A stretch of 42,039 nt of DNA from positions 1 to 42,039 of the forward strand of contig CAWEXY010000007.1 in assembly GCA_963813135.1 (NCBI GenBank), written 5' to 3'. A program made the position numbers and the translations under genes. Positions 4,667 through 21,102 of this stretch are shown one piece after another. This DNA comes from an uncultured Verrucomicrobiae bacterium. Its GTDB lineage: Bacteria; Chlamydiota; Chlamydiia; Chlamydiales; Rhabdochlamydiaceae. Numbering within the stretch: position 1 is the first letter of the stretch; every line of letters starts with the position of its first letter. The notes below the pieces were generated by a model. It was not told the origin of the DNA, ran no database searches, and saw only the letters and a list, made by a program, of their open reading frames with translations.

Positions 4667-6145
4667 TCACTTTTCGAGGTCGGTTAAAAACTCGACGAGG
4701 AGCCTTAGGCCAAAGCCCGTTGCAGGTGTCGAGTGATAGTGGCGCGGATTCGAAAGATAAGCGACGCCCGCGATATCGAGATGGGCCCAAGCCACTTTTT
4801 TCTCGATGAACTCTTGCAAAAAGATCGCACCCGAAATCGAAGAAGCTTTCCGATCGCCGGCATTTTTCATATCGGCAATCGAAGATTTAAGCACTTCTTT
4901 GTATTCCGGAAAGAGAGGGAAGCGCCAGAGGCGCTCATATGTGGCCGTCCCAGCATCCAACAGCCCTTTGGAGAGCTTATCGTCATTCGAAAAGAGCCCT
5001 GCCGCTTCTTCACCCAGCGCAACGACGATGCCGCCCGTTAAGGTGGCCAGATCGATAATACGTTTGGGTTTGTAATGTTTTTGCACGTAAGAAAGGGCAT
5101 CAGCAAGCACGAGGCGCCCTTCGGCGTCCGTATCGGCAATCTCAACGGTTTTCCCTGCATGACTCTTGTAAACATCGCCGGGTTTGTAACTCAGAGACCC
5201 GATGGCATTTTCCGTTGAAGGAATAGCGCCGAGAATATTCACTTTGAGCTTGAGGGTGGCAGCTGCTTTAATGACACCGAGAACGGTGGCTCCGCCGGCC
5301 ATATCATCTTTCATCGTGATCATACCGCTGCCCGGTTTAATATTGAGTCCACCGGTATCATACGTGATACCCTTGCCGACTAAGACCGTCAGGTCATCGC
5401 CGGAGGGATTGCCGCGGTATTCGACCAGAATAAAACGGGGCTCTAGGGGAGAAGCGCGATTCACCGCGAGCAGGAGTCCCATCTTCTCTTGCTCAATTTT
5501 TTTCTTATCCAAGATCGTCGTTTTAACTGCGCTGTGATCTTTGGCAAGTTTTTTGGCGACATCGGCAAGGTACTCAGGCGTCACATCATCGGCATTTCCC
5601 ATGACGAGGTCGCGGGTAAAGTTGACAGCTTCGATAATCGCCTGCGAACGCTTGCACTCGGCAAAAACTTCTGCATCGATGCCAATCAAGCAGCACTTTT
5701 CAACGTAGACAGGCGGATCTTTCTTTACCGTGGAGGGCCTCAAGGCATCGAAGACGTAGCTCGCGAGCAAAAGACCTTCCGTGATCGCAGCTGCGGCAGG
5801 GAAGCCTGTTTTGGGAAGGGCGATGCTGATGGCCGCTATTTTTTTGGAGCGGCACCATTTGATCGCTGCCGCCATGCTGCGGCGCAGACGCTCGCCGTCG
5901 CATGTCTCTTTATCCCCTAGGCCGAGGAGGAGCAGCCGGTCTTCCTTGTTGTGTTTTTTGTAGATAGGCAGCAGCTCTCCTTCTTTGCCCAGGAAATCGC
6001 CGCTTTTCACAGCGGGATCAAATGCTGCGGCAAACGAGTCCATCGGGCATGCAGACAGCGCCCGTTTTTCTCCCTGCCAAAAAGGGAGAATGAGCAAATC
6101 GGCCGATTTTCTCTCGGCGAAACTGGGGGCGTATGATAATTGCAT
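4667..6145 (-). CDS. pepA: leucyl aminopeptidase (M17)
   Basis: GKGITYDTGG, MKDDMAG, DTDAEGRLVLAD, DLATLTG, HLDIAG. Confidence 0.97.
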   Translation of the reverse strand: MQLSYAPSFAERKSADLLILPFWQGEKRALSACPMDSFAAAFDPAVKSGDFLGKEGELLPIYKKHNKEDRLLLLGLGDKETCDGERLRRSMAAAIKWCRSKKIAAISIALPKTGFPAAAAITEGLLLASYVFDALRPSTVKKDPPVYVEKCCLIGIDAEVFAECKRSQAIIEAVNFTRDLVMGNADDVTPEYLADVAKKLAKDHSAVKTTILDKKKIEQEKMGLLLAVNRASPLEPRFILVEYRGNPSGDDLTVLVGKGITYDTGGLNIKPGSGMITMKDDMAGGATVLGVIKAAATLKLKVNILGAIPSTENAIGSLSYKPGDVYKSHAGKTVEIADTDAEGRLVLADALSYVQKHYKPKRIIDLATLTGGIVVALGEEAAGLFSNDDKLSKGLLDAGTATYERLWRFPLFPEYKEVLKSSIADMKNAGDRKASSISGAIFLQEFIEKKVAWAHLDIAGVAYLSNPRHYHSTPATGFGLRLLVEFLTDLEK

Positions 6146-6576
6146 TAGAACGGCACCTCATCATCACCAATGGCAGCAACCGCTTTTCCTCTTCCATAGG
6201 CTGGCTCGCCTTTCTCAGATTTTTCTTCTTCGGAATCTCCTTGGGAAGCTTCGCCTCCTTTCGCGGAGTCAGGACGTCCAAAGGGGCTGAAAAGGATGCT
6301 AGATGCGGTCAGGCTCATAGAGATCTGGGGTTTGCCATCGCGATCTGTGAAGATTTCGGGTTTGTTCATTTCGCCGACGACGATGATGGGGCTTCCTTTT
6401 TTAAAGTAGGGTATCATCTTATCGAATTGATCCCCCCAAATCGATACGCGCCACCAAATGGTTTCATCTTTGCGAGCTCGGCATGCCACGCGCAGCGTGG
6501 TCACTTTTTGACCGGATGATGTAAAACGGACTTCAGGGTCTGCGCCAAGGTGTCCAGCGATTGTTGCTTGATTCAT
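6145..6576 (-). CDS. ssb: single-stranded DNA-binding protein
   Basis: MNQATIAGHLGADPEVR start after GGAGG SD; acidic tail DDEVPF. Confidence 0.96.
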   Translation of the reverse strand: MNQATIAGHLGADPEVRFTSSGQKVTTLRVACRARKDETIWWRVSIWGDQFDKMIPYFKKGSPIIVVGEMNKPEIFTDRDGKPQISMSLTASSILFSPFGRPDSAKGGEASQGDSEEEKSEKGEPAYGRGKAVAAIGDDEVPF

Positions 6577-6649
6577 ATCTCCTCCTAAATAAGATTCTTT
6601 GTCATTGTTGCAGGTGCAGAAAAACATTTCAAGCAGCGAATGAAAACCA

Positions 6650-7220
6650 AGAGAAAAAGGGTGTCGGGCTCTGACGAGCCCGAAAGTAATTTTTTATTTT
6701 TTGGGTTTCCTATGACATGTCGGGACCACGGCATTACATGTCCGTGCTCCCCGCTGCCCTCCTTGAGCTGACATCGGCTGCGCTAAATGGGTCCTCCGGC
6801 GCCGCGGCGTGCGGAGCACTGCCGCCGGCTTGTTCGGACCACATTTAGCATTGCCGGATGCAGCCGCGGGCTGCTCGCTTGCGCTGCTAAGGCAGCGCCG
6901 GCTCGCAAACCAAACTTAAGAAAACTTCTTAAAAATTGGCCTGTGAGCCGACGCGAAAAGGGACCCGTGCCGCAGGCATGGGAAATGAGCGCGCGAACAG
7001 TCGATGGCTTGCAGCCGCCCTGCAAAATGGTTCCGAACAAGGAGAGGCTGTGCTCTGCACGCCGAACCTTTGGGAGGAGCCATTTGGCTGGCGGATCCAA
7101 GCTCAAGGAGGGCAGCGGGGAGCACGCGCACACAAGTGGCGTGGTCCCGACATGTCATAGGAAACCCAAAAACTAAAATTATTTCATCGGGCTCGTCAGA
7201 GCCCGATACATTTTCTCATC
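6650..7220. repeat. long nested imperfect inverted repeat (REPIN/MITE-like element or structured RNA)
   Basis: perfect paired blocks 6664-6683/7187-7206 (20 bp), 6698-6730/7140-7172 (33 bp), 6743-6769/7100-7126 (27 bp); apex TTAAGAA-AAC-TTCTTAA 6916-6932. Confidence 0.93.
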
Positions 7221-7266
7221 TTGTGTTGCGGGAAATGCCCCCTTAAGATAATTAAATATTTTAGTT

Positions 7267-8418
7267 ATGACCCTGGCGGAAGATTTCACTCCTGATTTTT
7301 ATGACCCGTACTCGGATGTGAGCCTGTTTCTAGCACGCGAGGTCAAAAAAGCGATGCGAGAGGAAACGGAAATGAAATGGTCTCCCACTCTGCAAGAAAA
7401 ACTTCTCCAAAAAATTGCGCCCGAATTTTCTAAGCATTTCCCTCGGTATCGTTTGGGAGTCAGCTCGCTGAAAAAAACATGGGAGAAAATCTCCTACTAT
7501 TCCAAACAAATGCAAGGCCAAACGCATCTCTTTAACGCCGACGGCAAATTAAACGTTGAGGCGCTCATTCGTGAGAATATCCGCCGCGCCCTGCAAATGA
7601 AAAACTCCACACAGCATCAACCTTTGGCCTTTGCCCACCATGTGGCGCATAAAATCACCGATTTTTTGGCGATGATGGAAGGATCGCGGCCGATGCTCGA
7701 TCATTTAGCGCAAACCATTTGGGCCGTTCAACGCCACCTGCTACCGTTTGCACGGATAAAGGCGTCTCCCTCTCCGTATGACACGATGGACAAGCTCGAT
7801 AAAGTAGTGCTGAAAGTCATGCTGGAGGCCAGCGCCAAAGAAAATGGACTATCGCAAAAAAATCTATCCAAACGCGTACACGCCTGGATGCAAGAGGCCC
7901 AGTCGTCAGATCCCTCTCGCCTCGTGATGGAAGAGCTCGCCTATATCTCTATCGATCATCCCATGAAAAGCTCCCGGGCGGTCGCAGAGATGGCCAGCAC
8001 CTTCTTTCAAGGAGTGAAGAAACTTCTTTCCGCCACGAAGCTCTCCGATCTTGAGCACAAGATCTCTCTTTGGACGCATCAGGGAGATCTGGTTTATCGA
8101 TTTTTGTCGCTGCCGGGAGAAAACGGGCTTCTCTATGAAATACTGCACGGGAAGATGCGCGGCACCGTTAAGCGCTACTTGTCGCAGTATCCTCACCTCG
8201 AAGACCACATAGCTCTGGTAAAAGCCCGAGAAATCACCCTGCGCAAATATGTCTGGTATGCGCTGAAAGCGCTTCCGGAAGAATCGTCGTTGGACAGGTT
8301 CGCGGCATGGCACGCCAAGGGAAATCTTGGAGAAATCGCCCGCGAGCAAATTCCGCTGATCCCCTTACCGGCGCCGGTAAATCAAATAGAGGCCGAAGAG
8401 CACAAACGGCACGCTTAG
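7267..8418 (+). CDS. hypothetical protein
   Basis: 383-aa ORF with protein-like composition; overlaps the lgt 3' end convergently; no family recognised. Confidence 0.8.
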   Translation: MTLAEDFTPDFYDPYSDVSLFLAREVKKAMREETEMKWSPTLQEKLLQKIAPEFSKHFPRYRLGVSSLKKTWEKISYYSKQMQGQTHLFNADGKLNVEALIRENIRRALQMKNSTQHQPLAFAHHVAHKITDFLAMMEGSRPMLDHLAQTIWAVQRHLLPFARIKASPSPYDTMDKLDKVVLKVMLEASAKENGLSQKNLSKRVHAWMQEAQSSDPSRLVMEELAYISIDHPMKSSRAVAEMASTFFQGVKKLLSATKLSDLEHKISLWTHQGDLVYRFLSLPGENGLLYEILHGKMRGTVKRYLSQYPHLEDHIALVKAREITLRKYVWYALKALPEESSLDRFAAWHAKGNLGEIAREQIPLIPLPAPVNQIEAEEHKRHA

Positions 8419-18474: not shown

Positions 18475-21102
18475 CTACTCGTTTATTTCTTCTTTTGATT
18501 TGTTTTTATTGCTGCTCAGTTCATCTGAAATAGGCGTTTTTCCATTTTCCCACAGCAATCTTGCAATTTTATGACTGTCCCAATTTAGAAACGGTTCATT
18601 TGTTTCTTCTTTTGGTTCGTTTTTATTAATACTTGTCGTTGCAGTGCTGCTCAGTTCAATTTGCTCTTCCTTGTCTGTAGCAACTTCGCCTGATGTCTTA
18701 GTAGTTCGAGGTGGATCAAGTAAATTTTGTCCAGTATACTTTGCAAGGAGGATCCTAATTTCAGAAACGACTTGTTCGGCTTTATCCAAATCAAGATAAT
18801 CTCTTTCTCTTTTAGGATCGTTACGGTCATCTTTGGGAGCATAAACATTAAAATAATTGAGAATCTTTAAACTTTTGAAAACCGCATTAATTGACAAAGT
18901 TTCAGGTTTAAATGTGGAGACTTGATGGATTAAGCTTGTGGGAAAGACAACTATGGAATCTCTTTGGGTAGTTTGTTCACCAAGACATTCCAGATTGACT
19001 GTCCATAGGTAGGTCATATTTCGTTCTTCTAAATTCTGAAGAGGATTTGGTGACTTGACAACACGATGCATCCGAAAAGGGGCAGAAGGCGCGTTACTAT
19101 TTTGCCTATAAAGAGTGTGGGTATACCCCTCGTTAAGGATCATGCTCTCAAAACGGCGCGGGTGATCATGCGGAGCCTCCACCGTATCAATTTCCAACTC
19201 CTCTCGTGGCCAATAATTTAAACGAAGCTCTTTTATTTTATCAGCTAGAGCAAATTCTGGCGGAATGGGCAAGTGAAGACGGACAAACCCCGAAGGATTT
19301 TTTTCGACGCGTACGTTGTCGGCTGCATTATTCAGATAGCTGAGCGCATGTCTGACCAGTTCTTGAAAATGAGCTTTATTCAAAATACCTTCCAACTGAT
19401 CTTCTTCTTGCACTGGTTCCGTCTGCGGCCCTGACAAAGCTTTGTAGCAAGTATCGATAAAAGTCAGAATCTCGACTGTATTGGGATGTTTTTCGCCAAG
19501 GATTTCTTTTGTGATAGCAAGACCCTTCTCAAATGACTCGATCGCTGCCTTAAAATCACGTTTTTTTAATAAACCAATACCTATACTGCGCCAATCAGTT
19601 GCCACACGGAGATGTTGATTTCCATACCTTGTATGAATATCAAGCGCTTTCCGATAGTTTTCTAATGCCTCATCGATTTTTTCTGAAGCTTCTAAACATT
19701 TGCCTTTGTTATTAAAAAAATCTGCTATTCGGGGATGATCGTCACCATACCTAGTTTTATAAATGGTATAACCTTCCTCGCAGCGCTTTGCGGAAGTTGA
19801 ATAATCTCCCAATGAGTATAAGCAAGTACTAATATCAAGAAGAGAATCTGCAACGTAGGGATGGGTTTCAGGGTAAAAAGATCGATTATGGGCAAAAGTT
19901 TTTTCCGCTATCTCCAAGGCTTTCCGAAATTTTCCTAAACGGCCCAAGCACTTACTCACCTTACTCAAATAGGGGCCCATCATCTCCCAAATCACATGTG
20001 TACATCCCCTTTCATACATTTCATGGAACCGTTGGTAATACTTATCAGCCTCCTCAAAACTTCCAAGCCGCTCTAGGACCTCCGCCATATGGAATAAAGA
20101 ATTGGCAATAGCCACACCATCCTCTGAGCCATATATTTTCTGATTCATTTCCAGGGATTCACGAAAATATTTGTGCGCTTTTTGAAACTTGTTTTGGGTG
20201 CATAAGATGTTACCGATGTTATGTAAGGACTCCACAATCTCGGCATGATTTGTTGACCCATATATTTCCTTCCTCATTTCAAGAGATTGTTCATGATATT
20301 CTAATGCTTTGTCAAAATCGCCAAGCTTCCTGAAAGTGTGACCGATACAATCTAAAGTAAACGCAATCTCCGGATGAGGTTTTAAGTCATATATTGCATT
20401 CTTCATCTTCAGACAACGTTGATAGTGCATGAGCGCTTCATCATAACGGCCAAGACAACTCAAGGCGAAACCTATGTCGCTTAAAGAATTCGCAATATTC
20501 GGGTGATCCCTGAGGCCCAATGTTCTTTCCTGCATCGCTAGAGCTATTTGGAAATATTCTAAAGCGCCTTCTGCATATTCGAGCAGCAGAAGAACTCTTC
20601 CCTTATAGTTTAAAGAAGCTGCAATCTCTAAACAATCCTTCGAACCATACACTTTCTTCCTTACATCAAGAGCCTTGTCGAAATATTCCAGAGCATGCTT
20701 AAAGTGGCCTTGTTCCAGTAATTCTACTCCTATCTCATCGTAAAGAAATGAAATATCTAGCGGATTATCAAGATGACCAAGCTTCCAAACCCGTTCAATC
20801 TTCTTATAACAAGTTTCTAAACTAGGATGTTCGCCTTTAACTACCAATTCATTTAACCAGATATCTTTCTCGATCTGATAGCAATCAAATGCCTTTTGAA
20901 ATTTTCCATTACTAAGATAGGTATCGCCTGCTTTTCCTAGCCAGTAGAAAGCTTTTTCATAAGACCGCTCTACTCCTTCTCCATTTTTATATCTCTTTCC
21001 CAATTCATATTGCCTTTTAGGATTTCCTTGGCGAGCCTCTTCCTCAATAATGGGGTCGATAACAGGAGGGGTTGAATGAACTCTTGAAGCTGGAGAAGTC
21101 AT
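18475..21102 (-). CDS. SEL1/TPR-repeat protein with C-terminal cupin-like domain
   Basis: SEL1 repeat (QYELGKRYKNGEGVERSYEKAFYW); many ~42-aa HPxIAxSL TPR units; PHDHP...IHQV tail; AGGA SD; AT-rich. Confidence 0.88.
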   Translation of the reverse strand: MTSPASRVHSTPPVIDPIIEEEARQGNPKRQYELGKRYKNGEGVERSYEKAFYWLGKAGDTYLSNGKFQKAFDCYQIEKDIWLNELVVKGEHPSLETCYKKIERVWKLGHLDNPLDISFLYDEIGVELLEQGHFKHALEYFDKALDVRKKVYGSKDCLEIAASLNYKGRVLLLLEYAEGALEYFQIALAMQERTLGLRDHPNIANSLSDIGFALSCLGRYDEALMHYQRCLKMKNAIYDLKPHPEIAFTLDCIGHTFRKLGDFDKALEYHEQSLEMRKEIYGSTNHAEIVESLHNIGNILCTQNKFQKAHKYFRESLEMNQKIYGSEDGVAIANSLFHMAEVLERLGSFEEADKYYQRFHEMYERGCTHVIWEMMGPYLSKVSKCLGRLGKFRKALEIAEKTFAHNRSFYPETHPYVADSLLDISTCLYSLGDYSTSAKRCEEGYTIYKTRYGDDHPRIADFFNNKGKCLEASEKIDEALENYRKALDIHTRYGNQHLRVATDWRSIGIGLLKKRDFKAAIESFEKGLAITKEILGEKHPNTVEILTFIDTCYKALSGPQTEPVQEEDQLEGILNKAHFQELVRHALSYLNNAADNVRVEKNPSGFVRLHLPIPPEFALADKIKELRLNYWPREELEIDTVEAPHDHPRRFESMILNEGYTHTLYRQNSNAPSAPFRMHRVVKSPNPLQNLEERNMTYLWTVNLECLGEQTTQRDSIVVFPTSLIHQVSTFKPETLSINAVFKSLKILNYFNVYAPKDDRNDPKRERDYLDLDKAEQVVSEIRILLAKYTGQNLLDPPRTTKTSGEVATDKEEQIELSSTATTSINKNEPKEETNEPFLNWDSHKIARLLWENGKTPISDELSSNKNKSKEEINE

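Follow-up and report, generated by a model that had tools for sequence, protein, structure and literature searches.

The fold-back sequence beside ssb in the window (the whole 42,039-nucleotide stretch of Rhabdochlamydiaceae DNA analysed here) belongs to a repeat that occurs scattered through this and other genomes. This repeat is a gene-less chlamydial element of two facing, folded arms of about 250 nt, and it likely moves as non-autonomous DNA on borrowed IS transposases. The family of the window copy includes a true MITE subfamily in genome G064, and the window copy itself has neither MITE ends nor a duplication. By the tests given below, the element is not a REPIN, and it is probably not an RNA gene. 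The original prediction of a non-autonomous palindromic element is supported; the element is multi-copy, and the window contains no transposase.

Layout and fold of the window copy

The sequence confirms that the region between ssb and the hypothetical gene is, as first described, one imperfect inverted repeat. It has perfect 20-, 33- and 27-bp blocks, further blocks that are shorter, and a loop at 6923-6925. The 20-bp block pairs 6664-6683 with 7187-7206, the 33-bp block pairs 6698-6730 with 7140-7172, and the 27-bp block pairs 6743-6769 with 7100-7126. Inward of the 27-bp block are blocks of 8, 10 and 7 bp, the last of which closes the 3-nt loop. The identical, opposite end hairpins, the AT-rich spacers and the GC-richer interior are also present as described. 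The core (6714-7156) has a GC content of 62%, compared with 20% and 23% in the spacers inside the caps; the flanks have 38% and 32%. The element sits between divergent genes, ssb on the minus strand and a 383-aa ORF on the plus strand (Table 1). Its internal ORFs (6787-7176 and 6783-7133) have no Pfam match.

Folded as DNA, positions 6640-7230 have a predicted free energy of -223 kcal/mol (z -19.0). Folded as RNA, they have a z of -23.8 on the plus strand and -21.4 on the minus strand. None of 100 shuffles is equally stable in any of these foldings. The predicted centre of the element is a multibranch junction, with no continuous rod. Where the inverted repeat is interrupted, between the 33-bp block and the 27-bp block, each arm retains its own H1 stem with different bases, and the base differences between the left and right H1 preserve each local stem.

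The divergence of the arms had been taken to argue against a read artefact. This is borne out: the two arms are 66% identical across the core, and homologous copies with different arms occur elsewhere. A contig from a public run covers the left junction (6410-6671) with one difference, and the right junction (7110-7260) is covered with none; these contigs come from two other runs of one study, which may be runs of the source sample. No public-run contig was found to span the whole element, and no excision joint is seen in these contigs. Many copies in the family are located at contig ends, as an assembly or fold-back artefact would have it, and others are in single-contig genomes. An artefact is extremely improbable, and assembly fold-back is rejected because homologous copies with different arms are present at other sites and both junctions are found in public-run contigs.

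Table 1. Features of the window copy and the adjoining genes, with positions in the window.
Feature	Position	Strand	Basis
Left cap hairpin, 8-bp stem and 4-nt loop, genus-specific terminal module	6664..6683	+	Sequence, cap search
Left AT-rich spacer, cap to core, 20% GC	6684..6713	.	Composition
Left arm, conserved GACATGTCGG start inwards to TCGCAG-like inner end	6712..6908	+	Arm profile match 6688-6924, E 7e-36
Left arm H1, terminal hairpin with bulge	6722..6751	+	Sequence; helix 1; H1 profile match 6713-6768
Left arm domain H2, long stem, conserved mismatched internal loops, inner hairpin H2a	6769..6865	+	H2 profile match; helices 2-5
Central AT-rich spacer, 32 nt, with 7-bp apical hairpin (loop 6923-6925)	6909..6940	.	
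Right arm	6941..7158	-	Arm profile match 7185-6925, E 1e-43; sub-domain matches
Right arm subdomain H3	6941-7000	-	Profile match
Right arm subdomain H2	7006-7108	-	Profile match
Right arm subdomain H1	7118-7148	-	Profile match
Right arm GACATGTC	7149-7156	-	
Right AT-rich spacer, 23% GC	7157..7186	.	Composition
Right cap hairpin, same as left cap, inverted orientation	7187..7206	-	Sequence
ssb gene, context only	6145..6576	-	PF00436
383-aa hypothetical gene, context only, without Pfam match	7267..8418	+	

Copies, sites and ends across the family

The element is present in multiple copies, both in the genome of the window and across the family. This genome (G000; 1.83 Mb, 82% complete) contains three full copies (the window copy, C3:7866-8409 and C11:78346-78863), four partial copies (C10:76187, C23:2963, C11:61459 and C15:1886), one faint remnant and one lone cap. 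With a relative's copy as the query, 47 of 129 genomes in the family match, and these represent 18 of 40 genera. G013 and G064 have about 100 BLAST matches each, that is, dozens of loci. In a sample of the phylum, 36 of 300 genomes match; all belong to the same order and 14 are in other families, where solo arms are also present. All 20 loci fetched to check the weaker matches score with the arm profile. A loose pattern scan of genome contigs returned 120 loci, 14 of which score with the arm profile; these records are labelled Rhabdochlamydiaceae, Chlamydiae, Chlamydiales, Parachlamydiales, Verrucomicrobia or unclassified. The same profile is matched by 77 of 122 loci from a metagenome pattern scan and is not matched by the single viral pattern match. 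Plasmids have no match to the element, and a proteobacterial class sample of 301 genomes has only five weak matches of 26-33 bp.

The sites of the element turn over within the genus. At eight of nine orthologous sites in G000 and its congener G001, one genome only holds the element, and the ninth site keeps a lone cap. In two of the one-sided sites, there is almost no intergenic DNA in the genome without the element. The 205 ORFs beside copies fall into 173 clusters, the largest with five members; they are mostly housekeeping genes and include no recurring transposase. Where the distance to an upstream stop codon is measurable (107 arms), the anchor is 21-66 nt away in over half. The original prediction placed the element upstream of ssb, and comparison of ssb loci gives no tie to that gene: none of 29 relatives holds an arm there, and 11 of the 29 keep the ssb-hypothetical gene pair without the element. 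The ssb position of the window copy is incidental. For the window alone, the element is no more than a repeat inserted into the promoter region of ssb.

In G001 and G075 (L359, which is G001:C10:34413-34501, and L381), the 383-aa gene is missing and ssb adjoins lgt. At G000:C17:1-3197, one 14.6-kb contig carries another ssb, with 49% identity, and another lgt, which is frame-split and about 52% identical. The gene neighbourhood there matches that of the window, and the contig is either a block of paralogues or comes from a relative present as a contaminant. The window also encodes an 875-aa TPR-repeat protein (18475-21102) of a kind common in environmental chlamydiae. Some sites recur across genera (L004, L012, L059, L062 and L237; L078, L079 and L200; L013, L202 and L356), and they are either old shared insertions or hot spots. 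Their neighbours are probably a metallo-beta-lactamase-fold gene and rpsB/penicillin-binding protein, and also glgX.

The ends of the element differ among lineages. The end hairpins, described at the outset as REP-like caps, do not define the element. Exact caps are limited to two of 129 family genomes, both in the genus of the window, and the core is family-wide. All 12 exact caps are at element ends. The bases that precede them vary, with no consistent GTAG/GTGG tag.

In G064, the core-bearing copies are recent, with 94-98% identity, and end sharply at CAGGG, 66 nt outside the core. This end motif has 33 matches, compared with none in controls. The 31 loci examined include seven copies in which the core and both ends are present, and six of these seven are flanked by a duplication that matches at 9-10 of 10 positions. 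The same genome has 14 matches to an ISAs1-type transposase, and the IS is 1,301 bp long with CAGGG ends and 10-bp duplications, the latter in three of the four two-ended copies shown. ISArsp11 is listed with CAGGG ends and a 10-bp repeat in Table 3 of PMC6305408. The G064 MITE and the resident ISAs1 have only the first five terminal bases and the duplication length in common, and a different ISAs1 member may therefore be the mover. Elsewhere, L314 has ISAs1-related ends, and G071 and L252 retain relics of such ends. In G064, there are also core-less mini-elements of 46-56 bp with the CAGGG motif at their ends (L422:356-401, L425:294-349; also L423, L424 and L426), one of which has a 10-bp duplication. 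An IS66-like ORF was considered as the partner of the motif and set aside, as the ORF proved to be truncated by it. The core-less mini-elements and this cut ORF indicate that the ends act independently of the core.

A different end is shared by L234, L235 and L291, all from one metagenome. It is sharp, lies 54 nt outside the core on one side only and agrees in 15 of 18 bases with the left end of an IS630 from G068; the other ends are unassembled.

Across 53 elements, direct repeats are not in excess (4.7 nt compared with 4.6 nt in the control). Nine of 71 full elements pass a duplication-plus-repeat filter, and the two that are convincing, with IS-type ends and a clean duplication, are both from G064. 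The 99%-complete genome G013, with its dozens of copies, has no readable ends. The CAGGG-type motif is absent from G000 and G001, where the ends are ragged. One G001 copy has a possible repeat of 6-7 bp, which is within chance, and the window copy has no target-site duplication, as had been observed at the outset. Two models of the core edge were dropped. G000 has no empty palindromic target for a model of an 8-bp GACATGTC duplication, and a TA duplication was discarded because the conserved sequence continues outward of the core edge.

The arm and the spacer between arms

The repeat unit is an arm of about 250 nt that starts with GACATGTCGG. It consists of the terminal hairpin H1, the long stem H2, which includes an inner hairpin, and a domain H3. 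The arm alignment contains 73 arms, reduced from 135 by dereplication at 88%. Across 26 named pairs, 95.7% of 1,890 cells are paired and 21 pairs change on both sides, for a structure derived from the same sequences as were scored and with related arms that are not independent. None of 500 shuffles reaches as high a pairing, and slid controls give 37-48%. The covariation check thus upholds the arm fold, and it does not separate RNA from single-stranded DNA.

The two strands of the arm are not equivalent. H2 has six mismatched positions. At five of them, 58-70 of the 73 arms have two pyrimidines opposite each other on the inward strand, and at the sixth 33 of 73 do; on the outward strand these mismatches are therefore purine-purine. 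Wobble-type pairs number 33 outwards and 6 inwards, or 39 in the 1,890 cells. Wobble pairs are commoner in RNA helices. Of 61 arms, 26 have a GNA triloop at the H1 apex on the outward strand, and one has it on the inward strand. Triloops of the cGNAg and cTNCg types number 18 and 42, about ten times the level in shuffles (1.6 and 4.0). GNA triloops are reported to be very stable in DNA (PMC3201870, PMC13037366). From these sequence patterns, we infer that the arm fold is probably a structure of single-stranded DNA.

In 54 elements, the spacer between the arms ranges from 16 to 1,663 nt. Long spacers contain passenger ORFs: an HNH-like ORF (L200:1426-2145, below the Pfam cut-off), an SDR (L289:4381-5256), a P63C protein (L285:4535-5635) and an unknown ORF (L260:1409-1954). 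IS genes also occur inside the spacer, with an IS630 in L234, an IS4-like gene in L250 and a broken IS5-like gene in L078. These transposases were considered as movers and, being single cases, are read as insertions.

Arm identity has a median of 0.72 at spacers under 70 nt (n=27) and of 0.91-0.93 at longer ones (n=27). By genus, it is 0.74 (n=6) compared with 0.92 (n=10; p 0.016), with spacer length confounded with lineage. The exceptions are L208, L203, L285 and L436, with identities of 0.56-0.72 at long spacers, and L286, with 0.92 at 66 nt. The low identity at short spacers fits the part of PMC7999016 in which near-perfect palindromes with short spacers are the unstable ones.

The inverted repeat continues into copy-specific flanks, which are 0.5-0.8 complementary out to 25 nt (control about 0.3). 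Several genomes have tandem arrays of terminal units. In another family, L449:1327-2065 (also L443) is a solo arm within a near-perfect inverted duplication that includes about 170 bp of flank, which suggests that the element seeds fold-back duplications. At L005:1565-1860, an ORF comes after a right arm that is truncated; a 65-aa piece of this ORF has no Pfam match. The start of the ORF looks like an IS110 transposase, and L005 is possibly a case of an IS110 inserted into the element.

Known repeats, rival readings and meaning

The ends and inner junction of the element may resemble those of the Rickettsia RPE. Like the RPEs (105-146 bp) outlined in PMC3184786, the element is a palindromic repeat of intracellular bacteria; the RPEs differ in being shorter and often inside genes. 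Compared by description only, from the same portion of PMC3184786, the element is also like bcr1 of the Bacillus cereus group, which is dispersed at non-conserved positions and has compensatory changes, a branched, cruciform-like fold and no known dedicated transposase. The bcr1 repeat differs in its length of about 155 bp, its 5-bp duplications and its transcription.

Bacterial MITEs (Correia/NEMIS, IMU of 288 bp, NFM2 of 439 bp and an IS982-derived one in Cardinium), in the relevant parts of PMC3184786 and PMC9769881, form the comparison set of trans-mobilised elements. Like them, the element is gene-less, with inverted ends, many intergenic copies and a stable fold, and it can enclose passenger genes. 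The G064 copies, with true terminal repeats and 10-bp duplications, are like ISAs1 elements. Unlike MITEs, the element has as its conserved part an internal arm of 250 nt; its termini are lineage-dependent, no parent IS with arms was found, and most copies, including the window one, are without sharp ends or a duplication.

Like REPINs and TIRtron repeats, as far as these are described in excerpts of PMC3116915, PMC3337134, PMC3733652 and PMC6006769, the element is an inverted doublet that forms a long hairpin with a variable spacer, and it has compensatory changes, singlets as remnants and tandem clusters. Unlike a REP of 20-40 bp with a GTAG/GTGG or CGTC tag, its unit is about ten times longer, has three folded domains and is untagged. 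Unlike REPINs, it has no flanked RAYT, and its spacer reaches 1.7 kb.

A giant element of the REPIN or TIRtron type is rather unlikely. In that case, an HUH (Y1) enzyme would act in trans on the arms as single-stranded DNA, and G064 would have acquired its IS ends by a late accident. Such an element would fit the head-to-head doublet, the ragged ends without duplications in most lineages, the DNA-type GNA loops, the bulged subterminal hairpin, the tandem arrays of terminal units and the position of the anchor past stop codons; TIRtrons with long repeats are described in part of PMC3733652. The lack of a consistent tag before the caps stands against it, as do the searches for an enzyme. The original prediction pointed to RAYT/IS200-IS605 TnpA genes flanked by the same repeat, and none was found at the fetched family loci: 30 TnpA/RAYT loci and 25 further ones contain no match to the arm, H1, H2 or H3. 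Neither G000 (82% complete) nor G001 has PF01797, NF047646, PF13808 or a close IS630 match. With no Y1 or RAYT in these two genomes, no arm at the family TnpA/RAYT loci and a conserved unit of about 250 nt, the proposed membership in the REPIN/RAYT system is not supported. PF04986 (Y2, IS91/ISCR) is found in none of five carrier genomes, where the controls are equally silent. The RAYT-like genes that the family does have (L466, L467, L468, L470, L471 and L483) are flanked by different palindromic repeats of their own. One of these, of the GGAGTGCGG type, is present in four of those loci, and copies of it also occur in the central spacer of the L054 element. A second, unrelated family of short palindromes with GNA-type loops is present in G000 (C6:9671-9725, C10:94022-94064 and six shorter matches).

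It is distinctly unlikely that the arm is a structured RNA (a 3'-end stabiliser, terminator or small RNA) under host selection, with doublets serving both strands. The strong covariation would suit an RNA, and the tandem purine-purine pairs and the wobble excess on one strand also fit. Many ends are just past stop codons, other families have solo arms, and both caps are terminator-like on both strands (four sites compared with 1.2 in shuffles). Against an RNA are the turnover of sites within a genus, the rarity of wobbles, the copies between divergent genes, as in the window, and the GNA triloops, a DNA motif according to PMC3201870. The alternative of a rod-like ncRNA, raised at the outset, is not supported, given the blocks in which the arms disagree, which are local hairpins conserved in each arm, the DNA-type loops and the sites, which are not conserved. 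An already described Rfam family had been named as an outcome that would remove novelty; the window and 12 further loci have no Rfam match at gathering score, only sub-threshold matches of snoRNA and miRNA type. A plain MITE from a single ISAs1-like DDE IS, with ends decayed everywhere except in G064, is quite improbable. The ISAs1-type ends and duplications in G064, the related ends in L314 and the relics in G071 and L252 favour it. The IS630-like end in L234/L235/L291 is at a different distance from the core, genus g1 has hairpin caps, and flanking stop codons are only 28-35 nt from the core, all of which count against it. None of 24 further ISAs1 loci has an arm. At 30 IS630 loci, no transposase is flanked by arms, and L542 is merely near a G064 copy.

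Under the preferred reading of a non-autonomous element on borrowed IS transposases, the arm fold would be active as single-stranded DNA, in the strand running outwards from the centre. Fold-back repair would take one arm, with its flank, as the template for the other. This copying step is suggested by the flank extensions and the arm homogenisation; it would homogenise arms around long spacers and extend the inverted repeat into the flanks. It could also mirror an adjacent IS end, by which a doublet might become a MITE for that IS family, an event that is postulated and not observed. Where spacers are short, as in the window copy, arms that stay 65-80% alike may fold locally and make the palindrome tolerable. 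The window copy would be an old insertion whose mobilising enzyme is presumably absent from the assembled genome. Borrowed DDE ends do not explain the conservation of the arm fold across families. It is possible, if doubtful, that the arm is an ancient, order-wide module that folds in single-stranded DNA and depends on a vertically inherited unknown factor, with a doublet that mirrors neighbouring DNA, captures genes and IS ends, and founds MITEs anew.

No published description of the element was found in searches of the open literature. In the passages covered, the chlamydial genome papers PMC9723776 and PMC13229535 mention IS elements but report neither a palindromic repeat nor a MITE from their genomes. 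The MITE catalogue of PMC11602168 could already contain copies of the G064 type. If the preferred reading is true, the element would be a large undescribed family of chlamydial repeats, with dozens of copies in some genomes and often at assembly breaks. One structured core would then move under different transposase families, which would bear on the origins of MITEs and REPIN-like elements. The doublets that carry genes would offer intracellular bacteria a minor way of gaining genes.
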